Assembly (NCBI GenBank): GCA_045636045.1
Contig: JAZTWT010000011.1
Location: 1-63,449 of the forward strand
Length of the DNA stretch: 63,449 nucleotides
Origin: Candidatus Enterousia sp.
Lineage (GTDB): Bacteria; Pseudomonadota; Alphaproteobacteria; Rs-D84
Direction of reading: 5' to 3'
This document shows, piece by piece, positions 2,376-61,342 of the stretch (position 1 is the first letter of the stretch; every line of letters starts with the position of its first letter). Made by a program: the position numbers and the translations under genes. The notes below the pieces were generated by a model. The model saw nothing but the letters and a program-made list of their open reading frames with translations, was not told the origin of the DNA and made no database searches.

Positions 2376-2865
2376 AATCGTTTATCAATTTTGGCAGCGC
2401 GTTTTCCAAAACACCCAATAAATTACGATACAGCCCCAGAACCGCCCCACCTGATAACTTGTCAGATATAACAGAATGGGTATAATCAATCAAAGATTTG
2501 ATATTATCATGACGATTTGTCCATTCTTGTAAATCAATGTCTATTGAGCGCAAATCCTGGAACGCGGATAATAGAAAGTTAAAGTCAGCGTTCAAATTTT
2601 CTGGTGCTATTTGTTTCATCGGTTGGTAATCAATTGTTCTGCTTAATGAAATTTGTCGGAAAATGTCTATTCTTGTATCAGCAGTGGGCGCTTCGTTAAA
2701 AACAACATTTCCACCCGAATAATCTTCGTTTGGCATTACAGAATACACCAGCCCCGTTCCAACGGTTTCATTTATCGCCACATGAATATCTGCAATTTGA
2801 AAAAAAGGAAAAGAAAATGCAAATTCTGTTGTCGCGCCGTCCGCTATATATGATATTTTATACAT
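2317..2865 (-). CDS. T7 gp17-like tail fibre N-terminal (tail-attachment) domain protein, no receptor-binding domain
   Basis: Start MYKISYIADGATTEFAFSFPFF follows SD GGGGGGA. The pattern Y..DG..T.F.F.F plus a later ..LNADFNFLL..FQDL block resembles fibre N-domains. Only 182 aa. Confidence 0.5.
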   Translation of the reverse strand: MYKISYIADGATTEFAFSFPFFQIADIHVAINETVGTGLVYSVMPNEDYSGGNVVFNEAPTADTRIDIFRQISLSRTIDYQPMKQIAPENLNADFNFLLSAFQDLRSIDIDLQEWTNRHDNIKSLIDYTHSVISDKLSGGAVLGLYRNLLGVLENALPKLINDYGYITDVASNENIDDYGVL

Positions 2866-2882
2866 GTTATCCCCCCATACCA

Positions 2883-3233
2883 CTAGCCACCAACAATATC
2901 ATCAAAGCGCGACAATAAAGATTTTAATAAATTTGGTTTGGCAGCATGTGCTTTCTTTAATTTCAACAGGTTTTCATTGCGTTTCTTTTCATATGGTGCG
3001 GCCGTTTCTGATTTTAAACGTTTTAATACAGCACCTTCGGTTATGCCAGAATTTGACATACCAGATGCCCCATATTTTGCACGCTGGGTTGCCAAAACTT
3101 TTTTTATCAGATTTGTTCTTTCGGCATCATCCGTGGCCATTTGTTTCAAAATTTCCTGGCGCTGTGATTTTGCCTGTTTTTTATCTTCTTTGTAATCAAG
3201 CAGTTTTGTTACATCAGATACTATTTGTCCCAT
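2883..3233 (-). CDS. small basic/coiled-coil virion protein in the T7 gp13 position
   Basis: An internal ATG at 3233 (MGQIVSDVTKLL) is preceded by AAGGGGAT. The longer 158-aa ORF would overlap the upstream gene by 90 nt. Confidence 0.4.
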   Translation of the reverse strand: MGQIVSDVTKLLDYKEDKKQAKSQRQEILKQMATDDAERTNLIKKVLATQRAKYGASGMSNSGITEGAVLKRLKSETAAPYEKKRNENLLKLKKAHAAKPNLLKSLLSRFDDIVGG

Positions 3234-3268
3234 TTTTTTATCCCCTTTTGATAAGAAAAAAATGCATG

Positions 3269-4984
3269 TTATACCGAGTACCAACCATGTATTGTCATCG
3301 ACAGTACAGTAATTGGTTCGGAATCTGTTCCGTGAACTGTCCACAATGGTTGAATGCAATCATTCATCGTTCCCAATAAATTAATTGATACATCACCACA
3401 AAAACCAGGACTGTCCGCAGAATATATTTCATTCGGTAAATTAATACGGTGCGAATTTATATGAACTGATTTTGTATCAAGCAAGCGTGCAACCAATTTT
3501 CGTAACTTTACGCGCGTAGCACTGTGTCCAGATGCGCGCAGCGGCAAACCAGATGCAATATATGAAAATTCATATCTTTCACAATCTTTCATTGCTGTTT
3601 CTGAAAAACATTCCAGGAACACACCATCTGCACGCCTGGTTGCCAGATATGTACGACCATCTGAGATGGCAACTGACATAACATGCCCCATGGTTTTATA
3701 TCGCCCCCATGCGGATATACCCAATGCAGAATTATGATTCAAAACAGCAATCATGCCATCACCACACACAACGAATAATCGGTGCTGTAACGGATTGTAC
3801 GCCATGTCCACAGGATTTTTTATCAAGTGTCGCGCAAATGCACATAAATCATTTGCGTTGTAATGTTCGCCCAATTCATCCAATCCTAATTCGCGAATAT
3901 CGCAACCAGATGCGGACATGAATACTGTAGCCCCTTCGATTTTCTGTGGCGGCAGGAAACGCGCCATATATGAACCAATCGATGTATGCTGTTTTATATC
4001 GACTGATGATGGGGTTAATGGTTTACTGGAAATCGCCCATTCGCCAACATTTGTCAGAATTTGCAGGTTATCACTGCTGACGACGGTACTAATTTGTTGA
4101 CGTTGCTGCGACAGTAATGATATGAATATCGCTTCGTCGTCCAATCCGGTTCCAACATCGAAATTGTTATGCTGGCCAACCTGCGACATCCAAATACCGC
4201 CCGGCCAATCACGCGAACCACCGAACACCAACCTGTCTTGATGAAATGTGATACTGCGTGGCCAACCACGACGCATGCCAAATGCCGCTTCGCGCCAATC
4301 TGAAACACTGCTGGACGGCAGTGAATATGCACCATTGGTATGCGCAACTATCTGTGTTGGGCTGATGTATTCATAGACATACCACTGTTTGTCCAACAGA
4401 TATAGCCGCCCACCAACATTATTCGGTTTCCAGAAGTCTGCACTGGTTGTAAATGTGGCAAAGTTATTCCCATGCGAATTTGTTGTGACTGTAATTGTTA
4501 TGTTAGACGCATCATCAAATCTGACAAATGGCATATTCAATGTCATGTCTGCGTCATTACGCAGAAAAGCAAATTCAGACAATGTAAAATATTGTCCAGA
4601 CTGCCGTAAAACCTGGGGTGGGTAATCAGGATGCACAAATATCATTGTTCCGAAACGCTGGGCATACTGAACATGCGCCAACGCAGAATACGACCATGGT
4701 GTAATTATGTCTTGAACACGTTCTGTACCATGAAATATGTACATGTGCATATCAGTTAATGCAATTATATATTCATTTGATTCTGATACAGAAAAAGATA
4801 TTATACGCGCATCCCCAGATAACTTGCATACAGACTCTAGCCCCATTCTGCGCGTGATTCCACCGCCGGCCAAGACATCCATATTTTCAAGTTTTGACAA
4901 ACCGTTAATATCATCACGCGCATAAAAATCTGGGGAAACTTCACCATTTGCAAAAGAATTTTGTGTTTTTATAAAATTTGCCAT
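3269..4984 (-). CDS. large virion protein in the tail tubular protein B (gp12) position
   Basis: 571 aa with SD AGGGGA. The N-terminus FANGEVSPDFYARDDINGLSKLENMDVLAGGGITRRMG matches a motif I associate with podovirus tail-tube/nozzle proteins. Its position directly follows the gp11-like gene. Confidence 0.5.
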   Translation of the reverse strand: MANFIKTQNSFANGEVSPDFYARDDINGLSKLENMDVLAGGGITRRMGLESVCKLSGDARIISFSVSESNEYIIALTDMHMYIFHGTERVQDIITPWSYSALAHVQYAQRFGTMIFVHPDYPPQVLRQSGQYFTLSEFAFLRNDADMTLNMPFVRFDDASNITITVTTNSHGNNFATFTTSADFWKPNNVGGRLYLLDKQWYVYEYISPTQIVAHTNGAYSLPSSSVSDWREAAFGMRRGWPRSITFHQDRLVFGGSRDWPGGIWMSQVGQHNNFDVGTGLDDEAIFISLLSQQRQQISTVVSSDNLQILTNVGEWAISSKPLTPSSVDIKQHTSIGSYMARFLPPQKIEGATVFMSASGCDIRELGLDELGEHYNANDLCAFARHLIKNPVDMAYNPLQHRLFVVCGDGMIAVLNHNSALGISAWGRYKTMGHVMSVAISDGRTYLATRRADGVFLECFSETAMKDCERYEFSYIASGLPLRASGHSATRVKLRKLVARLLDTKSVHINSHRINLPNEIYSADSPGFCGDVSINLLGTMNDCIQPLWTVHGTDSEPITVLSMTIHGWYSV

Positions 4985-50208: not shown

Positions 50209-50303
50209 TTTTATGATTTTTTTACTTGCGTTTGTTTTACAGATATGTATAATTGGGTGGCATTGCCGGTTTAGCTCAGCTGGTAGAGCGGCTGATTTGT
50301 AAT
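50209..50303 (+). repeat. attL: tRNA-Thr promoter plus 5' half (direct repeat of 61211-61305)
   Basis: 39 nt are identical to the 5' part of tRNA-Thr up to the anticodon loop (50265-50303 = 61267-61305). The ~55 nt upstream are colinear and partly conserved, including TATAAT. Confidence 0.8.
50265..50303 (+). pseudogene. truncated tRNA-Thr (5' 39 nt only)
   Basis: GCCGGTTTAGCTCAGCTGGTAGAGCGGCTGATTTGTAAT is followed by unrelated sequence (GAGACACC instead of CAGTAGGTC). Confidence 0.85.
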
Positions 50304-50761
50304 GAGACACCAAAGCAAAGCAGCACAATTGAAAAACATCGGATTTTCGCGGTTTTCCGCGTTTTTTTATTTCTTTTTTTGAACTGGTCGACTGTTGAAA
50401 CTTATGGTGTTTTTTGCCAAATGTTTGAATAAAATGTCCCAAATATGGACCCTATTTTTATCCCCATAAAAACACACTAAAAAACGGTCAAAAACATATC
50501 ATGAAAAAATATTTTTTATGGTCCTGTCCTGGTCCACTGACTTTCTTTTTTTTGCCACGACAACAGCCAAAATATTTTTATGGCACACTCATGCCACCAA
50601 CATGCTCAATCGCTGACACGGGCCATTTGTCGCACAGACACACGGCAAAAAAGCATTCTTTTTATCCAGGAACCAAATTTTAACCCGATATCCATAGGGG
50701 GGGTATGGGATACCGCCCCTCTGATTTTTTATATTCGTGGAATTATGAAACAAAAGAACAT

Positions 50762-51223
50762 TTAACGCTTTTTGCTTGGTAACAATATTATTATCAATCC
50801 TGGCAAATTTCCCAACACAACCTCTAAATGATATTTTGTTAAATAGCTAATAAAAGTATATAAACGCAAATTATATATATGACATTCACCATAAATCAAA
50901 CAATTAATCGCCACTTTATTCATTAGCAATTCGGGCAAAATCGCAATTGTCGCCCCGAATACAAGCGCAAGACCAATCCACCACATAGATATACCAGTAT
51001 CACGAAAACGACGCCAAAGCATTGTAGTAGCAGGCAGCATGCAAATTATTGACACACACGCAGCCAAGTTTAATGATAAAACCGCTGTCGCCAGCAATAG
51101 TATAAGCAAAAACAACGATGTTAACCAATATTCCTTGCGAGTTGTACGCCCCCTAAAATCAACATATCCAATCCAAAAATTTTTTATTGCCTGATAAAAA
51201 GTTATGTTATTTGTTTTTTTCAT
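50762..51223 (-). CDS. DUF805 family inner-membrane protein
   Basis: The N-terminal F.GR..R.EYW pattern (VDFRGRTTRKEYW) is followed by TM segments. It lies 15 nt downstream of hsdR. Confidence 0.65.
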   Translation of the reverse strand: MKKTNNITFYQAIKNFWIGYVDFRGRTTRKEYWLTSLFLLILLLATAVLSLNLAACVSIICMLPATTMLWRRFRDTGISMWWIGLALVFGATIAILPELLMNKVAINCLIYGECHIYNLRLYTFISYLTKYHLEVVLGNLPGLIIILLPSKKR

Positions 51224-51238
51224 TTTTTACTCCTTTAT

Positions 51239-54200
51239 TTATTCACTAATACTGAAAAAGCGTTCAAAGAATGCCACAATCTTTTCAATTACTGTTTTTT
51301 TCTTTTGGGCGCGGTTATTATCACGGTCAAACATGGACATTGGTGGCAAGATTTTGCCAATATCTGTGCCACTGGTTTGAACCGCACCATCGCGGAATGC
51401 ATTTTGAACAAACTTGTATGTTTCTTCACGGTTCAAGTTTTCTTCGGCAATTATACGGTCCAGTTCTGTGGCCTTGGCACTGTTAACAAATTTAACCCAA
51501 TCACGGTCAACAATGGTGTCAGGTGTTAAAGATGCCACGAACTGCATAATCAGGTCTTTTTTATTACGCAATTCAACACTGGAATCCACCGCCTTTTGGA
51601 TTGTTATCAAAATTTCTTTGTCATTCATGTGCGATTCATGATAACGCGCAATCAAAGACAGGATATAGTCAATATTAACGTCCACGGACTTTATCAATTC
51701 CATTTCAAAGACCACATCGTCCTTTACATTTTCTGCGGTGCCATGGGTTGGGCGCATTTCTGTATAAAGGCCGATATACATACTTTGATAATCTTGGAAT
51801 TGGCGCGGACTTAATATTTCATTGCCAGCAAACTCATCAAATGAATGCAAAATGTTCTTTACGCGCAATATTGCACCGAACAGACGCACAAATTCTTTCT
51901 TGTCGCTTTCAGACGCCAACACAATGCCCGCTTGGAATTTATCAGTTAATTCGCTTATCAGTTCGGCATAGCCCACCACATGTTTACCGTTCTTTTCATA
52001 ACCGTTATAATATTCATCATAGGTTTTCAGCAGAACCAAACCAGCCGCATCTTTGTCGCCAAACAAAGCAATACTTTCATTTGTTGCGTTTTCTAGGTTG
52101 CGGAAACACACAATATTGCCATGTGTTTTAACGGCATTCAAAATGCGGTTAGTGCGTGAAAATGCCTGCAATAAACCATGTTGGCGCAAATTCTTGTCCA
52201 CCCACAGCGTGTTTAATGTGGTGGCATCAAACCCCGTCAGGAACATATTAACCACAATAACCATATCCAATTCACGGTTTTTAATACGCAATGATAGGTC
52301 TTTGTAATAATTTGGGAATTTGGCTGCACTGGTGTCAAATGTGGTTCCAAACATTGCATTATAGTCCGCAATAGCCATGTCCAAGAAATCACGCGAACTG
52401 GCATCCAAACCGCTGGTGTCGTCACTGTTTTCATCCAGAACGCCATCCTCTTCATTTACCCCAAAACTGTAAATGGTCGCAATCTTTATCTGCTTGTCCG
52501 ATGGCAGGCCCACCATTTGGCGTTTGAATTCGTTATAATACAGTTTTGCCGCATCAATACTGGACACAGCGAACATGGAATTAAAGCCCGCCAGACGGCG
52601 TTCTTTTACCTTGTAAAAGGTATTACGCATGGTCTTTTGGTCAAAGTGTTCCAAAATATACTTTGTTATGCGACTAATGCGTTCAGGGGCCAATAATATA
52701 CCCTCGCGGTCAATGTCAGCAACCTGCTTGTCGTCAATATCTTCTGCGACACGCAGAGTTGAAACATAATCAATTTTGAACGGCAGAACATTCTTGTCAC
52801 GAATAGCATCCACAATGGTATAAGTGTGCAACTTTTGCCCGAACGCCTGTTCTGTGGTTTTCAGGTCTGGTTTGCCGCCACCCTGGGCATTGGCTGCAAA
52901 GATTGGCGTGCCTGTAAAGCCAAACAGGTGATATTTCTTGAACGACTTTGTTATAGCACTGTGCATTTCACCAAATTGGGAACGGTGGCATTCATCGAAT
53001 ATCAAAACCACATGTTGGTCAAACACAGGGTGGTCACGATGCTTTTTAATGAATGTGGACAGTTTTTGAATGGTGGTTATAATAATGCGCGCGCTGGATT
53101 CTGGACGCAATTGGCGTTCCAATACGGCGGTGCTGGTATTACTGTTGGCGGCACCTTTTTGGAAACGGTCATATTCCAACATTGTTTGATAGTCCAAGTC
53201 CTTGCGGTCAACTACAAACAAAACCTTGTCTATGTCGGTGCGTGCGCTGGCCAATTGGGCGGTTTTGAAACTGGTTAATGTTTTTCCCGAACCCGTGGTA
53301 TGCCAAATATAACCACCACCGTCAACAGTTCCCCATTTCTTATAGTTATTTGCAATTTGTATTTTGTTCAATATGCGTTCGGTGGCCACAATTTGGTATG
53401 GGCGCATAACCAGCAATTGCTGGTCCGCATTAAATACACAATACTTGGTTAAAACATTCAAAATACTGTGGCGCGCCAAGAATGTTTTTGCAAAGTCCAT
53501 CAGGTCTGTGATTGGCATATTGTTGGCGTCCGCCCACCATGATGTGAATTCAAAACTGTTGCTGGTGCGTTTGCCTGCCTTGGGGCCACGATTGGCATTT
53601 TCGTTTATGTGTGAAATGCGGGTGGTATTACTGTAATACTTGGTATATGTGCCATTTGAAATAACAAAAATCTGAACATATTCATACAGACCAGAACCCG
53701 CCCAAAAACTGTCACGCTGATAACGGTTTATTTGGTTAAAGGCCTCTTTGATATCAACGCCACGGCGTTTTAATTCCACATGCACCATTGGAATACCGTT
53801 AACCAGTATGGTCACATCATAACGATTTTCATGCACGCCTGCATCGGTTTCATATTGGTTTATAACCTGCAAGGTGTTATTGTGAATGTTTTCTTTGTCA
53901 ATCAGGTAAATATTTTTAACTGTTCCGTTGTCACGGGTTAACAACTGAATATGGTCTTCTTGGATAATGCGTGTTTTTTCACGAATGCCATTTGATTGGT
54001 TGGCAATATTCTGGGCAAAGAACCGATCCCATTCCGCATCGGTAAAGGTATATTTATTTAATTTTTCCAACTGTTGGCGCAGGTTGGCAATCAATTCGGA
54101 TTCGGTGTGAATTTTTACAGGTTCATACCCCTGGGCCCCAAGTTGTTTTATGAATGCCTGTTCTAATGCGGCCTCGGACTGATAGCGTGTTGCGCTGGTG

Positions 54201-54268
54201 TCACCTGCGCTATATTCCGCAACAACCGTTCCTTGGACATTTTGTGCAACAACATCGTATTTAACCAT
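51239..54268 (-). CDS. hsdR: type I restriction enzyme R subunit (EcoR124-like, type IC)
   Basis: 1009 aa with an N-terminal PD-(D/E)xK nuclease region (DVTILVNGIPMVHVELK), helicase motifs TGSGKT and DECHRSQ, and a long helical C-terminus. Confidence 0.92.
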   Translation of the reverse strand: MVKYDVVAQNVQGTVVAEYSAGDTSATRYQSEAALEQAFIKQLGAQGYEPVKIHTESELIANLRQQLEKLNKYTFTDAEWDRFFAQNIANQSNGIREKTRIIQEDHIQLLTRDNGTVKNIYLIDKENIHNNTLQVINQYETDAGVHENRYDVTILVNGIPMVHVELKRRGVDIKEAFNQINRYQRDSFWAGSGLYEYVQIFVISNGTYTKYYSNTTRISHINENANRGPKAGKRTSNSFEFTSWWADANNMPITDLMDFAKTFLARHSILNVLTKYCVFNADQQLLVMRPYQIVATERILNKIQIANNYKKWGTVDGGGYIWHTTGSGKTLTSFKTAQLASARTDIDKVLFVVDRKDLDYQTMLEYDRFQKGAANSNTSTAVLERQLRPESSARIIITTIQKLSTFIKKHRDHPVFDQHVVLIFDECHRSQFGEMHSAITKSFKKYHLFGFTGTPIFAANAQGGGKPDLKTTEQAFGQKLHTYTIVDAIRDKNVLPFKIDYVSTLRVAEDIDDKQVADIDREGILLAPERISRITKYILEHFDQKTMRNTFYKVKERRLAGFNSMFAVSSIDAAKLYYNEFKRQMVGLPSDKQIKIATIYSFGVNEEDGVLDENSDDTSGLDASSRDFLDMAIADYNAMFGTTFDTSAAKFPNYYKDLSLRIKNRELDMVIVVNMFLTGFDATTLNTLWVDKNLRQHGLLQAFSRTNRILNAVKTHGNIVCFRNLENATNESIALFGDKDAAGLVLLKTYDEYYNGYEKNGKHVVGYAELISELTDKFQAGIVLASESDKKEFVRLFGAILRVKNILHSFDEFAGNEILSPRQFQDYQSMYIGLYTEMRPTHGTAENVKDDVVFEMELIKSVDVNIDYILSLIARYHESHMNDKEILITIQKAVDSSVELRNKKDLIMQFVASLTPDTIVDRDWVKFVNSAKATELDRIIAEENLNREETYKFVQNAFRDGAVQTSGTDIGKILPPMSMFDRDNNRAQKKKTVIEKIVAFFERFFSISE

Positions 54269-54284
54269 TTTTCACCCCTGTATT

Positions 54285-55475
54285 TTATGCCGCCATTGGG
54301 AACGACAATAATTTATCCCGATAATATTCATACTGTTGACGGCGTGCGTTTATTTCCGCAGGCAACCCATCAGATATATCATTTACCAACGCATCAAATT
54401 TATCCAAAATCGCAACAATTCGTTCCTGTTCCGCAAGTGGGGGAATTGGGATTTGCATCATCAAAACGGACTTCATTGTCGGATGCTGAATTCCAGCACC
54501 TTTATAAAAAGTTTTTAATGTATCGATATTATTTGAAAGCCAATAAAATAAAAATTTATTATTCAAAACGTCTGTATCATTGGATGTGGCAATTCTATTG
54601 TCCGATGTGACAAACTTTCCTTTATGGTATTTAACATTTGGTGTCCCGCCCCAAGGAATCGCAACCACCTCGCCATCACACAAATGTTTTCCTGCCAAAC
54701 ATTCAGTTGTATAGCCGCTTTTCCCTATTCCTGTCCCCAACAAACGAACATCGCCATTTTCGCACTCTAATGAGTTCATGTCTTTGGCTAACAAATATGG
54801 GTATTTTATTATTTTATTTTGCATATGCTTTTCAACCCCATTAAATCTTTTGTCCCACGATGTTATTTCCCACAGAGCCATTGTTCTTACCCCCCCCTGT
54901 GAAATATCAGCAAAATTCAATAACTTATCACGATAGTGTTCATATTGTTTTTTTCTTGCCTCCAGTTCTGCCTCCAGTTCTGCCTCCAGTTCTGTAAAGG
55001 AGTCCAGAATACGAACAATTTCCTGCTGAACTGGCAATGGCGGGATTAACACCTCTACCTTTGCCATAACATTACTCATTAACTTTGGGTTCCCCATACC
55101 TGCATTAACATATTTTTTTGCAACTGCGCCCAAAGCATAATGCAAATATTTAACGTCAATATCGTCCATCATTATCTGCAACAACCCACAAACATTTGTT
55201 ATACTAAATTTCCCAGTTCTGTAAAATACAGAACCTGCATTAGCACCATCAGTCGTCCATGTTAAATATTCACCATCGTAATCGAATGTGTTTATCTGCC
55301 CCAACATACCATTGTTTACAGTTTGACTTGAATAAACAGGATACTCTCCATAATTATCACGCAAATAATCCTTGGACATAACCCTGCCACGAGATATTTT
55401 ACAAATATCACCAATGCACACCTGTTTCACCCCATTCGGGCAATATTTGGCAATTAAGTCGGTTATTTTTGACAT
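54285..55475 (-). CDS. hsdS: type I restriction enzyme S (specificity) subunit
   Basis: Two TRDs are separated by conserved helices (LPVQQEIVRILDSFTELEAELEAELEARKKQYEHYRDKLL and LAEQERIVAILDKFDALVNDISDGLPAEINARRQQYEYYRDKLL). Confidence 0.9.
   Translation of the reverse strand: MSKITDLIAKYCPNGVKQVCIGDICKISRGRVMSKDYLRDNYGEYPVYSSQTVNNGMLGQINTFDYDGEYLTWTTDGANAGSVFYRTGKFSITNVCGLLQIMMDDIDVKYLHYALGAVAKKYVNAGMGNPKLMSNVMAKVEVLIPPLPVQQEIVRILDSFTELEAELEAELEARKKQYEHYRDKLLNFADISQGGVRTMALWEITSWDKRFNGVEKHMQNKIIKYPYLLAKDMNSLECENGDVRLLGTGIGKSGYTTECLAGKHLCDGEVVAIPWGGTPNVKYHKGKFVTSDNRIATSNDTDVLNNKFLFYWLSNNIDTLKTFYKGAGIQHPTMKSVLMMQIPIPPLAEQERIVAILDKFDALVNDISDGLPAEINARRQQYEYYRDKLLSFPMAA
54958..54993 (-). repeat. 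3 x 12-bp perfect tandem repeat inside hsdS (encodes ELEAELEAELEA)
   Basis: GCCTCCAGTTCT occurs three times on the plus strand, in the central coiled-coil spacer of HsdS. Confidence 0.9.
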
Positions 55476-56080
55476 TGGTCACCTCCCTCTGGGGCTTGCA
55501 GTTCACTTGCAAACAAATCACGAAGTTTTTTATCAGATTTACAAACGTCTGCATGTTCTTTTACATATTCAAAACTTTTCATAACATCGTGTTTCATTTG
55601 ACCAGAATTTAATGCGCCATTACAATCCAAACGAATATAACTTTCATTGGTATAATCCAGCGGTTTTTCAAAAAACATTTTCAATTCATCATAAAAGAAA
55701 TACAGTTTATCTTGAATGGCACTTGAAAAAAACAACTCGGATTCTTGGCATGTATTCAACATGCGTTTCAACAACAAAGAAACAGTTTTTGCATTTAATG
55801 TTTCAATTTCAATCAAACTGATTGTATGCAAAATATCATAAAATTCTGTATAAACTTTTAACTTATATGGATATTCTGCCGACCATTTGCGCATTTTTTC
55901 ATCCGCATCTGCATTTTTACGCTGTTCGATTAAATCTTTTTTACGAATATGATGTTGCCACCACAAAGTCCCGACTGTTGCAAAAATCGATACCCCCAAC
56001 GCAATCCAAGCAACCCAATCAATGCCAGAATTTTGGACCGTGATAACATCGTTAATTAAATGGGTTTGAACGGGTTCCAT
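55463..56080 (-). CDS. hypothetical membrane-anchored protein embedded between hsdM and hsdS (orf205)
   Basis: Its ATG overlaps the hsdM stop (TAATG at 56078-56082), and its stop lies 13 nt inside hsdS. It has one TM segment (WVAWIALGVSIFATVGTLWW) and a ~150-aa helical soluble part. Confidence 0.6.
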   Translation of the reverse strand: MEPVQTHLINDVITVQNSGIDWVAWIALGVSIFATVGTLWWQHHIRKKDLIEQRKNADADEKMRKWSAEYPYKLKVYTEFYDILHTISLIEIETLNAKTVSLLLKRMLNTCQESELFFSSAIQDKLYFFYDELKMFFEKPLDYTNESYIRLDCNGALNSGQMKHDVMKSFEYVKEHADVCKSDKKLRDLFASELQAPEGGDQCQK

Positions 56081-57639
56081 TATTCATCCCCCTGTAAATC
56101 TGCAACAATTGCATCAATTTGGGTACGCAATACGCTTTGACGGGCAACAATGTCGCCAATGCGTGCATTCAGTTCGTTTATATCGATTTTTTCACGCGTA
56201 TCGGGCTGTTCAACATATGTGGATACAGACAGGTTATAATCATTTTCCGCAACATCGGTGTTATTTACCAATTTGGCAAAGTGTTCCATATCTGCGCGCC
56301 CAATAAACGCTTTCAATATTGTTTCAATGTTTTCATCGGATAATTTATTCTTGTTCCCAGAATGCACAAATTGGTTGCCCGCATCAATAAACAGAATGTC
56401 ATTGTCCGCCTTGTTTTTCTTTAACACGATAATACATGTTGCGATTGTCACCCCAAAGAACAGGTTTGCGGGCAACTGAATAATGCAATCTACATAATTG
56501 TTATCAACCAAGTATTTACGGATTTTCTGTTCTGCACCACCACGATACAGCACACCAGGGAATTCAACAATTGCCGCCGTGCCAGATGCCGACAACCACG
56601 ACAGCATATGCATTGTGAACGCAAGGTCCGATTTGCCGCGTGGTGCCAATACGCCCGCAGGTGCAAAGCGTGGGTCGTTTATTAACAGTGGATTATCATC
56701 GCCATCCCATGGAATTGAATAAGGTGGGTTAGATACAATCGCATCAAATGGCTCTTCATCCCAATGTTTCGGTTCCAACAATGTGTCGCCATGTGCAATA
56801 TTAAACTTTTCATAATTGATATTATGCAGGAACATGTTAATGCGACACAGGTTATATGTGGTTATGTTCTTTTCCTGGCCAAAAAATCCCTGACGCACGC
56901 CATTTTGCCCCAATATTTTTGCAAACTTTAACAATAATGAACCCGAACCACATGCAGGGTCATAAACCTTGTTAACCTCGGTCTTACCCACCAGGGTTAT
57001 TTTTGCAAGCAGTTCTGATACCTCCTGCGGGGTAAAGAATTCACCACCAGATTTACCCGCATTGCTGGCATACATGGTCATAAGATATTCATACGCATCA
57101 CCAAAGGCATCAATACTGTTGTCTGTAAAATTCCCCAAGTCCAAACCAGCAATGGCGTCTAATATTTTTACCAGTTTTTTGTTTCTTTCTGGGACGGATG
57201 CACCCAATTTATTACTGTTCACATCAATGTCGTCAAACAAGCCACGGAAATCATCTTCACTTTCTGCACCAATGGCGGAATTTTCAATATTTGCAAATAC
57301 GGCAGCCAATGTTTCATTCAGGTTGGCATCTGCCTTGGCCGTGCGTTGGATATTTACAAACAATTCAGACGGCAGGATAAAGAACCCTTTGGATTCAATA
57401 CATTCATTGCGTGCGATTTCTGCGCTGGCATCGTTCAGGTTGGCATAACTGAAATCTTTATTACCAGCGGCATGTTCGTTTTTATCAATATAGTGCGCAA
57501 TATTTTCGGATATAAAGCGATAAAATAAAAAGCCCAATACATATGCTTTGAAATCCCAACCGTCAACCGCACCACGCAAATCGTTTGCAATCTGCCATAT
57601 AACACGGTGCAATTCCGCTCTTTCCTGTTCGCGCGCCAT
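56080..57639 (-). CDS. hsdM: type I restriction enzyme M subunit (N6-adenine methyltransferase)
   Basis: N-terminus [40 protein letters not shown] motif [11 protein letters not shown] and the NPPY motif (SNPPYS). ATG 57639 has an AGGGG SD, and an upstream in-frame ATG lies at 57654. Confidence 0.92.
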
Positions 57640-57657
57640 TATAAACCCCTGCATTTG

Positions 57658-57689
57658 AAAAAATTAAACCACCGAACAAAGCGGTGGTT
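57658..57689 (-). terminator. terminator-like hairpin at the 3' end of the hsdM leader RNA
   Basis: The RNA reads AACCACCG-CUUUGUU-CGGUGGUU followed by UAAUUUUUU. It ends ~20-35 nt before the hsdM ATGs. Confidence 0.55.
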
Positions 57690-58133: not shown

Positions 58134-58562
58134 CTAATCCTGTGGTGGATTTTCAAGAAAGTTGTCGCCAACTTTCCATTTTTTCCACTCGTTTGATGGA
58201 CGATTTTCACCCTTGTTTTTGTCGGTGTTTAATTTCCACGCGCTGGCAACATTTCCACCATTTGCGAAATATCCCAATCGGGTTTGTGTTATAAAACCCT
58301 TTTGCTGCAATTCTTGGAACGCTCTGCCAGCTGTGTTGCGACTCATCGGACACGCTTTTGCCACATCGCGACACGACAAACAGATATCGCCATTATTAAC
58401 GCCATTAAATCTGCGTTTTAACAACACTAATACGCGCATACCTGCATGAGACAAGTGCTGAAACGCCATCGAATCCACCAGTTGGAATGACAGGGCGCAA
58501 AAGCGTTCTTTTGCACTCTCGCGTCCAAACAGGCGACAGTTTGCTTTAACTTTTTTTGCCAT
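58134..58562 (-). CDS. winged-helix DNA-binding protein (island regulator or replication-initiator-like)
   Basis: Start MAKKVKANCRLF at 58562. The segment ..CLSCRDVAKACPMSRNTAGRAFQELQQKGFI.. is wHTH-like. Confidence 0.5.
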   Translation of the reverse strand: MAKKVKANCRLFGRESAKERFCALSFQLVDSMAFQHLSHAGMRVLVLLKRRFNGVNNGDICLSCRDVAKACPMSRNTAGRAFQELQQKGFITQTRLGYFANGGNVASAWKLNTDKNKGENRPSNEWKKWKVGDNFLENPPQD

Positions 58563-58714
58563 GTTCGTCACCCGTGTCGTTTTGCTGCAACAACTGCATG
58601 AAATGCAATTGCACTGGTTTTTGATGTTGCACAACGGCAATGTCGTTGTTATTATTGGATTGGTTTGTTATTAAATCCGTGATATGTGTCGCGGATTTTT
58701 CTTTTTTATTCATT

Positions 58715-59159: not shown

Positions 59160-59858
59160 TTATTGACGTTCAAACGCGGACTGTTTTGCCGCACGCTTTT
59201 TTGCCGCGTTTTGGGTGGCTAATGCAGCCAATTTAAGTATCGTCCCACCATACATGCCACATTCCTTACGGTTTCTAATAGAAAACGCAAACATATAATC
59301 CACAATATAAAAAATTGCGGCAATATACATGTCTTCTGGGGTGGCGTTAAATTTGTTTATAAACCAGCGTCTGCGCTGGGTTATTAGTGTTTTGGATGCG
59401 GCGGGCGCAACAACATTTTCTTTTAGTGCCGCATGCTTATCTTTTGTACGCAGCAAATCCACTTTTGTTTTACCTCTTGTCGTTGGTTTTCGCTTGGCCG
59501 CAGGGATATATTTGCCCACCAATTCAGCATCGCGATTTGATAAAACAGACAATAACACTAACTGCAACATATGCGGCAGATCTAAAATGTTTGTATTTAC
59601 CAATTGCGAACGACTTGCTGTGCTACCCCTTAAAATTTCTGTGTTTTCTATCAAATCACACATTGTATCCATTAAATACTGCAACCGCTTTTGTTGCTCG
59701 GGGGTAAAGCTTATTTGCTGTGGCACCACGACCTTATCGTCTGGGAAAAGCATATTATGCGATTGCAACACTGCCTCATTTACGCCAAAACCCACAAATT
59801 CAGGGCAGTGTTTCATTACGTCATGATATTGCTTTATTGTCAATTTGCGATATTTCAT
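59160..59858 (-). CDS. hypothetical island protein (232 aa)
   Basis: Its ATG overlaps the integrase stop (ATGA). No motif recognised. Confidence 0.5.
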   Translation of the reverse strand: MKYRKLTIKQYHDVMKHCPEFVGFGVNEAVLQSHNMLFPDDKVVVPQQISFTPEQQKRLQYLMDTMCDLIENTEILRGSTASRSQLVNTNILDLPHMLQLVLLSVLSNRDAELVGKYIPAAKRKPTTRGKTKVDLLRTKDKHAALKENVVAPAASKTLITQRRRWFINKFNATPEDMYIAAIFYIVDYMFAFSIRNRKECGMYGGTILKLAALATQNAAKKRAAKQSAFERQ

Positions 59859-60913
59859 TCCGCACCACCAAATATTTTTGCGTTCATACTGGCCACGACA
59901 CTGCTTTTATGTGCATTGGACAGGTGTGCATACCGCTTTACCATGGAAAGCGTTTTATGCCCCAAGACATCTGCGATTTCATTTGGGCTGGCACCATTCA
60001 TTGCCAAATAACTGGCACAGGTGTGGCGCAAATCATGAAATCTAAAATCATGCAAACCTGCCTTGGCTACCACGGTTGCCCAACTGCGTTTTATTTCGCA
60101 TGGCCCCGAATTTTTATCGTTTGGAAATACCCATACGTCGGACTTACGCTTTTCATATAACTGGCGCACCAAATCTAATGCAGGTCCCCATAAGGGCAGA
60201 CCACGCATTTCACCGTTCTTGGTATGTTCTAATACTGCCCACCCCTTGTCCAAATCAATATTATCCCAACGAAGGGACAATATCTCGCCACGTCTGGCAC
60301 CAGTTGAAATTGCCAGCACGATGATGGCATACAAATCCTTGTTTTTTGAATCCTTGGCTGCTGCCAATAGGCGTTCGCGCTCCACATCACTTAAAAAGCG
60401 TGTACGACCACGACTTTCGCGTTTGTGTTCAACACGAGCCACTGGGTTTACATCTATCCACCCCAACGACTTTATTCCATAAGCCAACGCACAACTTAAT
60501 GCGGCCAAATACCTGTTTAATGTCGCTGCACTTTTTGGTCTATTGCCATATTGGATTGCGGCAATCCGTTCAAGTGCACTGGTTATGATTGCAGGCGTCA
60601 AAGAATATAACCTGGTCGCACCAATAAACTTTTCCCATTCATCCAACTGTGTGGTGAGTGTTTTTATGGAACGCAACCCGTTATCTTCAATATGCCGCTT
60701 ATATCGGTCTAACAATTCACTGAATGTGCGATTGCGTGCATTTGTGTTTGGCATGTGTTTTTGATCGCGCATTTCCGTTTCGGTTTTCACGGCCCATTCA
60801 CGCGCCAATGTTTTACTGGAAAATGTTGCTGTTTGAATAAGGTTTCCCTCTACACGAACACGCGCTCTATATCGAACACCAGATTTGGTCATTCTTTTTT
60901 CAATCGTTGCCAT
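59855..60913 (-). CDS. int: tyrosine site-specific integrase
   Basis: Catalytic motifs are present: TGARRGE, HDLRHTCASYLAMNG and LGHKTLSMVKRYAHL. Confidence 0.92.
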   Translation of the reverse strand: MATIEKRMTKSGVRYRARVRVEGNLIQTATFSSKTLAREWAVKTETEMRDQKHMPNTNARNRTFSELLDRYKRHIEDNGLRSIKTLTTQLDEWEKFIGATRLYSLTPAIITSALERIAAIQYGNRPKSAATLNRYLAALSCALAYGIKSLGWIDVNPVARVEHKRESRGRTRFLSDVERERLLAAAKDSKNKDLYAIIVLAISTGARRGEILSLRWDNIDLDKGWAVLEHTKNGEMRGLPLWGPALDLVRQLYEKRKSDVWVFPNDKNSGPCEIKRSWATVVAKAGLHDFRFHDLRHTCASYLAMNGASPNEIADVLGHKTLSMVKRYAHLSNAHKSSVVASMNAKIFGGAE

Positions 60914-61210: not shown

Positions 61211-61305
61211 TTTTATGATTTTTTTGCTTGCGTTGCCCCCCACAATATGTATAATTGTGGGGCAACGCCGGTTTAGCTCAGCTGGTAGAGCGGCTGATTT
61301 GTAAT
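61211..61305 (+). repeat. attR: island-borne promoter plus 5' half of the functional tRNA-Thr
   Basis: Direct repeat of 50209-50303. TATAAT lies at the equivalent position upstream of the tRNA. Confidence 0.8.
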
Positions 61306-61342
61306 CAGTAGGTCGTTGGTTCAAGTCCGACAACCGGCACCA
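61267..61342 (+). tRNA. tRNA-Thr (anticodon TGT), CCA encoded
   Basis: GCCGGTT-TA-GCTC-AGCTGGTA-GAGC-G-GCTGA-TTTGTAA-TCAGT-AGGTC-GTTGG-TTCAAGT-CCGAC-AACCGGC-A-CCA. Confidence 0.9.

Follow-up and report, generated by a model that had tools for sequence, protein, structure and literature searches.

orf205, a rare and optional gene between hsdM and hsdS of mobile type IC restriction operons, encodes a predicted membrane protein with an exchangeable domain

The 63,449-nt stretch of DNA analysed here (contig JAZTWT010000011.1 of Candidatus Enterousia sp.; "the window" in what follows) contains a type I restriction-modification (R-M) operon with an additional gene, orf205, placed between hsdM and hsdS. 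We found orf205, also called X below, to be a real gene, the product of which belongs to a rare, unnamed and previously undescribed protein family. Mobile type IC islands carry it as an accessory cassette which is optional and is not a subunit of the enzyme. Its product is predicted to be held in the inner membrane by a single helix and to carry a cytoplasmic domain which is exchanged between near-identical operons. We tentatively propose, with a probability of roughly one in three, that X is a membrane-anchored module (sensor/effector) of second-line phage defence. Accessory genes of this kind are already known; new are the family itself, the predicted anchor in the membrane and the fact that the cytoplasmic domain is exchanged in a manner resembling the recognition domains of HsdS. 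Labels of the type L0xx and P00xx denote compared loci and family proteins, respectively.

An optional gene in the hsdM/hsdS junction

On the minus strand of 50762-57654, the gene order is hsdM, orf205, hsdS, hsdR and a gene for a DUF805 membrane protein (Table 1). According to Pfam and PADLOC the host operon encodes a complete system with HsdM, two-domain HsdS and HsdR; because HsdR carries an EcoR124-type C-terminal domain, the system is assigned to type IC. Stop codon of hsdM (TAA, 56082-56080) and start codon of orf205 (ATG, 56080-56078) have one base in common within TAATG at 56082-56078. The stop codon of orf205 (TAA, 55465-55463) falls 13 nt within hsdS, the ATG of which is located at 55475-55473, and the Shine-Dalgarno sequence of hsdS (GAGGGAGGTGA, ending 4 nt from the ATG; GGAGG 7 nt before it) lies inside orf205. 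The boundaries of orf205 and both of its junctions had been described in a first-pass annotation of this DNA and were found to be correct. Both junctions are built for translational coupling. The remaining intergenic gaps are short (16 nt between hsdS and hsdR, 15 nt between hsdR and the DUF805 gene), and a consensus scan, which in itself is not functional evidence, detected no convincing minus-strand terminator-like site between the genes of the operon. Judged from this layout, a single transcription unit reaching from hsdM to the DUF805 gene is plausible.

Among 5.8 billion proteins, 13 matches to orf205 were returned by a word-indexed search, and a profile search over all 1.84 billion representatives returned 29 at E <= 1e-3, with the best E value of 5e-92. 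Owing to these strongly matching homologues, orf205 is a real gene, beyond a chance open reading frame. The N-terminal half is strongly conserved even among members with less than 30% overall identity. Neither Pfam nor NCBIfam gave a match to orf205, and none of the 5,027 PADLOC v2 models did, which places the protein outside the published candidates of that release. Relatives were absent from 72,556 plasmids and 50,697 phage records searched by tblastn and from a viral contig collection. In a scan of genome representatives, the sole relative belonged to a Candidatus Enterousia metagenome-assembled genome related to the contig of the window.

The order hsdM-X-hsdS-hsdR recurs in L008-L020 and L033-L035, where HsdM is 71-99% identical to that of the window. 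In these loci X begins with a 1-nt overlap or after a gap of 2-4 nt, and it overlaps hsdS by 8-14 nt. One of the operons (L017) contains, in addition to X, a PADLOC-confirmed PrrC (7e-96, also matching AAA_13) between hsdS and hsdR. More distant members are found in the order hsdM-RhuM-X-hsdS-hsdR, also with overlapping junctions (L022-24, L026), and two contig-truncated loci, L027 (X-hsdS-hsdR) and L028 (hsdM...X), are consistent with the same arrangement. Inside hsd loci X is always located directly 5´ of hsdS, even where RhuM stands between hsdM and X. The family is thus strongly but not exclusively tied to type IC operons. A survey of type I loci for homologs in the M-x-S position, as proposed in the first-pass annotation, is answered in the positive for several diverged type IC lineages, and in the negative for the closest homologues and one distant member, which reside outside hsd loci.

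The same island, inserted at the same tRNA-Thr site beside the same flanking Peptidase_U32 gene, also exists in a form lacking X (L032). Nucleotide identity of this allele to the window amounts to 93% in the integrase region, 96.7% in hsdM and 96% in the left attachment region, and the integrase is situated upstream of hsdM as in the window. Homology ends at position 56078, the G of TAATG; in L032, TAATG of hsdM leads directly into hsdS (MSKIADLI...). The insertion point of the cassette thus lies precisely between the ATG that provides the coupling and the ATG of hsdS. Taken together with the family members found in non-hsd loci, L032 rules out a core or obligatory role of X. Absence of the gene from otherwise identical operons and scatter of homologs over unrelated contexts had been named beforehand as outcomes that would refute the proposed defence effector, and both apply in part, the former through L032 and the latter through the members outside hsd loci. 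The pattern of presence and absence nevertheless suggests typical accessory cargo, and we do not read it as disproof of a link to defence.

When relatives of HsdM were picked irrespective of X, the content of the hsdM/hsdS junction (M/S, with S/R standing for hsdS/hsdR) proved to vary. An operon with HsdM 99% identical to that of the window has the order M-S-R with an empty slot, and one with 90% identical HsdM has a gene for 154 aa in it (M-[154 aa]-S-R). At 76% identity we found M-RhuM-S-R and, inside a phage-like element, M-[169 aa]-S-R with a further gene between S and R, the product of which has 379 aa or is an AAA_13 protein of 365 aa. Plasmid homologues with 57% identical HsdM are arranged as M-S-R and M-S-Fic-R. 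RhuM matches the PADLOC candidate PDC-S05. None of X, RhuM, the 154-aa protein and the 169-aa protein is related to any of the others. Since unrelated genes occupy the same position of sister operons, the M/S junction serves as a slot for accessory genes. The HsdM clade has thousands of members at ~75% identity in several phyla, a spread which indicates a highly mobile system.

Domain exchange on a predicted membrane anchor

Comparison of the window with L008-L011 by blastn reveals a mosaic. The sequences are ~96% identical from upstream of hsdM to position 55830 (codon ~83 of X). Homology is then lost over 55830-55518 (codons ~84-187), where a different variant, "B", replaces the variant "A" of the window, and it returns at 85% over the tail of X and the start of hsdS. 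It is lost again in each of the recognition domains of HsdS and comes back at ~97% through hsdR. On the protein level, the N-terminal 83 residues of close relatives are 56-94% identical, while the C-terminal variants A and B share 9-15% identity. The tail behind the variable part is conserved as DNA jointly with the 5´ end of hsdS (85-88% nucleotide identity across variants).

The same swap is seen in a second island lineage, which has a different integrase and a 1043-aa HsdR: L033 carries an A-like and L014 a B domain. The first recognition domain of HsdS remains 92.5% identical between these two, and the exchange of the X domain is therefore independent of hsdS. HsdM and HsdR proteins can be 99% identical between operons bearing A and B, and one A variant, common to the window and L021, has a different HsdS as its neighbour in each of them. 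The window and L021 share an 848-nt tract (55463-56310) of 100% identity which comprises the 3´ end of hsdM and all of X; the surrounding DNA is ~96.5% identical, and the first difference appears one base past the stop codon of X. Such a tract indicates recent recombination carrying the X cassette. GC content of X is 34% overall and 30% in the variable part, versus 42% in hsdM and hsdR, which fits a mobile module.

The first-pass annotation had read orf205 as one N-terminal membrane helix followed by a helical remainder without recognised motif, and hydropathy, structural models and family searches agree with it. The membrane segment of orf205 reaches a Kyte-Doolittle maximum of 1.67 in a 19-residue frame (values of 1.67-1.97 were obtained for the helix), and a single hydrophobic stretch close to the N-terminus is present in each of the 33 aligned members. 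The basic flank of a membrane helix faces the cytoplasm (positive-inside rule). In the 33 members, the mean number of lysines and arginines is 0.6 in the 15 residues before the helix and 4.4 in the 15 residues after it. By this asymmetry the acidic tail would lie outside and the remainder in the cytoplasm. We thus predict a single-pass inner-membrane protein with a short tail out and its bulk on the cytoplasmic side.

Column entropies show N10 and D21-W22 to be conserved family-wide. One face of the helix is conserved in sequence and bears small or polar residues (A24, A27/L28, S31/I32, T35, T38/L39, followed by Q42); such conservation seems to exceed what a passive anchor would need. Between the helix and the best-conserved motif of the family there is a charged linker, the length of which differs by more than 20 residues across members.

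AlphaFold2 models of both variants were confident (predicted local distance difference test, pLDDT, of 80 and predicted template modelling score, pTM, of 0.64 for A; 83 and 0.67 for B), with low pLDDT of the N-terminal tail in both. They concur in a long helix which runs into an up-down helical bundle, with an extra beta-hairpin in B. A Foldseek comparison, which had been recommended as a way to identify the protein, was uninformative: searched against PDB and BFVD, both models gave generic helical-bundle resemblances alone (CheA P1, BRIL, Tar and OspC). The best of them was OspC with E = 6e-3; TM-scores did not exceed 0.45 (mostly 0.2-0.4) and root-mean-square deviations were high. Profile search of PDB sequences yielded nothing under E = 0.19.

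Some weak matches point towards holins. The membrane segment of orf205 matched PHROG 1350 (holin) with E = 0.09, its only match among PHROGs, and Pfam Phage_holin_2_3 was hit by 6 of the 33 members below threshold (best E = 0.0034, 17.8 bits against a cut-off of 28.8). These matches span the membrane helix and the adjacent basic segment. Another sub-threshold match, to Pfam CTD4 (PF20280), was obtained for a single member of the 33, P0018 (residues 80-139; 21.5 bits against a cut-off of 27.6; E = 1.9e-4). It overlies the W-x-A-x-Y-P motif and, like the holin matches, is taken as a lead only. Membership of orf205 in CTD4 (ABC-3C, Lamassu-type) was considered and dropped, the match being below the gathering score and confined to one member. 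No ABC/SMC ATPase with a middle component adjoins X in the window, and a PrrC-type ABC ATPase shares the operon with X solely in L017.

Possible functions of X

We suggest that X may add a second line of phage defence to the operon. Insertion of its gene keeps the coupling chain from hsdM through X to hsdS intact. The swappable cytoplasmic bundle would be the recognition part and would respond to a cue of phage origin, which might be an anti-restriction factor or the condition of the R-M complex, and the conserved membrane helix with its adjacent segment would form the constant output part. Output might proceed through self-association or through a membrane partner, with the result that the membrane is compromised or the infection is blocked. 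We favour defence because of the embedding, the persistence of both ancient domain classes in each of two lineages and the conservation of the helix. Operons of the same clade moreover contain known or candidate defence genes: RhuM (PDC-S05) takes the position of X, and PrrC is found between hsdS and hsdR.

A number of observations weigh against this proposal. P0003 and P0004, the closest members by overall identity (52-54%), are encoded without hsd genes and are followed by an unrelated small membrane protein; the distant member in L025 stands in the order RhuM-X ahead of a 727-aa protein, also without hsd genes. Stand-alone members in non-hsd loci lack an evident antitoxin-like partner, and they are therefore evidence against strong intrinsic toxicity as well as against obligatory control by R-M. 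The family is rare and so far restricted to metagenomes and metagenome-assembled genomes. No family match in PADLOC, Pfam, NCBIfam or among solved structures points to an activity. For a pore former, one helix joined to a soluble domain of ~160 residues would be atypical, and neither a catalytic nor a pore-forming signature is present. Presence/absence and mosaicism could stem from hitch-hiking alone, and a variable domain per se is no proof of recognition of a phage factor. From the initial idea of an R-M-linked defence effector we thus retain an embedded, recurrent and plausibly defence-linked gene, which is also optional and not confined to hsd loci.

X resembles several known systems. Like PrrC of EcoprrI (and its relative RloC), it is an accessory gene of some type IC operons to which the logic of a back-up effector could apply. 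PrrC, however, is a soluble ABC-ATPase and tRNase encoded between hsdS and hsdR, whereas X is predicted to be membrane-anchored and is encoded between hsdM and hsdS. For this reason the earlier label "PrrC-like position" is wrong, although the placement between hsdM and hsdS as such is right. We rejected an identification of X as PrrC: the slot is wrong, X has no ATPase (AAA_13-type) or nuclease domain by Pfam and PADLOC, and it coexists with a true PrrC in L017. RhuM (PF13310) occupies the same M/S slot with the same overlapping junctions in L039-41 and stands directly upstream of X in L022-24, L025 and L026. It is an unrelated, soluble protein of ~345 aa, and the two occur together or apart. 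Holins and abortive infection (Abi) effectors with a membrane helix likewise combine an N-terminal helix with a basic segment. In comparison with holins X is larger, has a predicted ~160-residue cytoplasmic domain and no adjacent endolysin, is absent from phages and scores below the cut-offs.

Variable intervening genes in type I loci have been described in Campylobacter jejuni as "mlo" open reading frames between hsdS and hsdM and "rlo" between hsdR and hsdS (work of 2005, as summarised in PMC5183652). The summary of that work speaks neither of membrane anchoring nor of domain swapping, and no retrieved context of X comes from Campylobacter. To regard inserts between hsdM and hsdS as unprecedented is too strong in view of the mlo genes and RhuM. 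"Guilt by embedding" is an established way to find defence genes; Payne et al. used it and reported 3,231 protein families embedded in type I R-M, BREX and DISARM systems, nominating hundreds of candidate defence genes (bioRxiv 10.1101/2024.01.29.577857). X fits this logic of discovery. It lies on the same strand within a complete system and is found again in diverged loci, and the core system can do without it. The PDC models in PADLOC-DB v2, however, do not match it. The nearest parallel to its domain exchange is the shuffling of HsdS recognition domains, in which a discrete segment with conserved flanks is likewise exchanged between near-identical operons. There the segment is a DNA-recognition domain; in X it belongs to another gene and is a predicted helical bundle on a membrane anchor.

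Other functions of X can be imagined. It might be a guard or adaptor of a new kind for R-M systems, its bundle sensing anti-restriction factors or docking the type IC complex at the site of DNA entry and its helix giving the membrane response; X would then be shuffled alongside the HsdS recognition domains as a second specificity module. We regard this as unlikely. X might also tether the enzyme to the membrane or modulate its assembly. Its cytoplasmic domain would bind HsdM, HsdS or HsdR and hold the complex where phage DNA enters, or it would tune the production or assembly of HsdS and HsdR; in one variant, co-translational insertion of X could keep the polycistronic mRNA, and hence the synthesis of HsdS and HsdR, at the membrane. 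Such a role would suit a gene whose coupling to hsdM and hsdS implies co-expression at similar levels, which in hsd loci is found immediately 5´ of hsdS with RhuM between or not, and whose product is predicted to direct its C-terminal domain into the cytoplasm and to expose a conserved membrane-proximal motif that could be a docking site. In fractionation work, Holubova and colleagues reportedly found type I enzymes to be associated with the membrane in a family-dependent manner. Yet the enzyme does without X in the near-identical island L032, and X occurs without any hsd genes. HsdM and HsdR of 99% identity coexist with A and B domains of 9-15% identity, and one A variant coexists with two HsdS; the variable domain therefore does not track an R-M subunit. 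As the distance between membrane and motif is also inconstant by more than 20 residues, tethering seems a doubtful explanation to us.

If X had no part in defence, it could be hitch-hiking cargo, i.e. a generic moron-like membrane protein or a selfish cassette, in a junction which tolerates inserts that preserve coupling. Its presence/absence polymorphism, its rarity (29 representatives), the unrelated contexts with other small membrane proteins downstream and the lack of a recognisable domain would all be expected of such a passenger, and the operon of the window carries another, unrelated membrane protein as cargo, DUF805. Passive cargo would not, however, account for an N-terminal half conserved across members less than 30% identical overall, nor for recurrence in several independent hsd lineages with always precise overlaps. 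Two deeply diverged domain variants are moreover kept in two island lineages, which indicates selection on the protein, and we give hitch-hiking a low probability. Finally, X might block the injection of phage DNA at the inner membrane in a manner resembling superinfection exclusion, and serve as a restriction-independent first line on the same island. Small size, N-terminal anchoring and residence on a mobile island would agree with it, as would the ability of X to function, in principle, without hsd genes; conservation of the outside tail and the helix might stem from an interaction with phage ejection proteins or with a channel of the inner membrane. Variation would in this case be expected outside, while prediction places the bulk of X and with it the variable domain in the cytoplasm, and no homologues were found in phage genomes or viral contigs. 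A blocker of entry is thus the most improbable of the functions considered here.

The search for new anti-phage systems has profited from genes nested in R-M operons, and such genes can guard the system around them, as the example of PrrC demonstrates. The X family represents a membrane-anchored candidate that current defence catalogues do not include. If the proposed role in defence is true, it would add to type I restriction a membrane-level layer whose recognition module evolves by cassette exchange. If it is not, the hsdM/hsdS junction of a widely transferred type IC clade would still be a plug-in slot that preserves coupling, and knowledge of it would aid annotation and the mining of candidates.

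The island and neighbouring features

The hsd operon is cargo of an integrative island of ~11 kb, bounded by 64-nt and 24-nt direct repeats (D1, D3; 92-96% identical), the copies of which, at 50209-50306 and 61211-61308, are spaced by 11,002 nt. Among public sequences, the window is closest to a contig from a metagenome-assembled genome of Candidatus Enterousia, an uncultured alphaproteobacterial genus with named species from animal faeces.

Table 1. Coordinates of the operon, of the segments of orf205 and of the island in the window
Feature	Coordinates	Strand	Description
hsdM	56080..57654	-	type I methyltransferase subunit; Pfam N6_Mtase 1.8e-115 and HsdM_N; PADLOC MTase_I
orf205 (X)	55463..56080	-	ATG start, 205 codons; predicted single-pass membrane protein of unnamed family
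orf205 residues 1-21	56018..56080	-	short acidic N-terminal tail; 0 K+R, 3 D+E; predicted outside cytoplasm
orf205 residues 22-41	55958..56017	-	predicted single transmembrane helix WVAWIALGVSIFATVGTLWW
orf205 residues 64-82	55835..55891	-	best-conserved family motif [RQ][KQ]-W-x-A-x-Y-P-[HY]-[KR]-L...F-Y-D; predicted cytoplasmic
orf205 residues 84-187	55520..55831	-	variable cassette, variant A in window; predicted cytoplasmic helical bundle
orf205 residues 188-205	55463..55519	-	tail; holds hsdS Shine-Dalgarno sequence, overlaps hsdS start by 13 nt
hsdS	54285..55475	-	specificity subunit; Pfam Methylase_S in two stretches; two variable recognition domains
hsdR	51239..54268	-	restriction/motor subunit; Pfam HSDR_N, SWI2_SNF2, T1R_D3-like, EcoR124_C (9.8e-68); PADLOC REase_I
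DUF805 membrane protein gene	50762..51223	-	Pfam DUF805 6.8e-11
Tyrosine integrase	59855..60913	-	Pfam Phage_integrase 2.8e-33; just inside right end of island
Left island boundary	50209..50306	+	duplicated tRNA-Thr upstream region and 5´ half
Right island boundary	61211..61342	+	repeat copy (61211-61308) and intact tRNA-Thr(tgt) gene (61267-61342)

The duplication at the island ends covers the upstream region and the 5´ half of tRNA-Thr(tgt), not its 3´ end. This points to integration within or 5´ of the anticodon region, the island bringing with it a promoter and a 5´ half as replacements. In the window, an HTH_36 open reading frame of 168 aa (58134-58640) separates the integrase module from hsdM; in its place the sister island L032, which lacks X, encodes a 488-aa DUF3631 protein (2586-4052); the replication/regulation module of the island is therefore variable too. 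DUF805 had no tblastn match in loci L001-L028, the set covered by that search, and it would seem to be cargo specific to the allele of the window. Behind hsdR, L014-16 contain genes for 84, 79 and 210 aa, the last product matching the PADLOC candidate PDC-S57. This position appears to be another variable cargo slot.

Upstream of hsdM, directly before its start, there is a terminator-like GC-rich hairpin with a T-run (57667-57689, minus strand), which may insulate the operon from the upstream genes of the island or regulate it. Most HsdM homologues have 519 aa, and the true start of hsdM may thus be the Met at codon 6.

In HsdS, the central conserved region (residues ~160-185) contains three copies of the tetrapeptide repeat LEAE (FTELEAELEAELEARKKQ). 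TAEL repeats set the length of the spacer in EcoR124I/II, and the LEAE repeats are similar to them; variation in their copy number could change the specificity of HsdS. In several related operons (L008, L009, L034, L039 and L041) two half-genes (209+197, 193+179 and 201+190 aa) stand in place of the hsdS gene, which sister loci have in full length.

The phage-like element mentioned above is represented by L030, L031 and L036-L038. It carries a 76% identical version of the type IC operon, in which the M/S slot is filled by the 169-aa gene and the S/R slot by an AAA_13 gene resembling PrrC. DUF5681, a ParB-methyltransferase and a terminase large subunit are also encoded in the element, of which one copy comes from an assembly of Candidatus Avelusimicrobium (Elusimicrobiota). 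The small soluble slot proteins of 154 aa (L029:8578-9042) and 169 aa (L030:8566-9075) show, by eye, an R-x4-H motif (RNNMFH and RNALCH). We did not adopt an identification of the two as HEPN RNases, given that no Pfam or PADLOC model supports it. A 679-aa HsdM-like protein, at first sight a candidate fusion of HsdM with X, was recognised as an internally duplicated HsdM and rejected.

Next to the distant RhuM-X pair of L025, the 727-aa protein (L025:7632-9815) has no family match and displays, by eye, a GHKL-ATPase-like motif, "IKDSGIGFD". Its gene adjoins a serine recombinase and a methyltransferase-like gene. RhuM, X and the 727-aa protein may form another defence module in which X is a partner.

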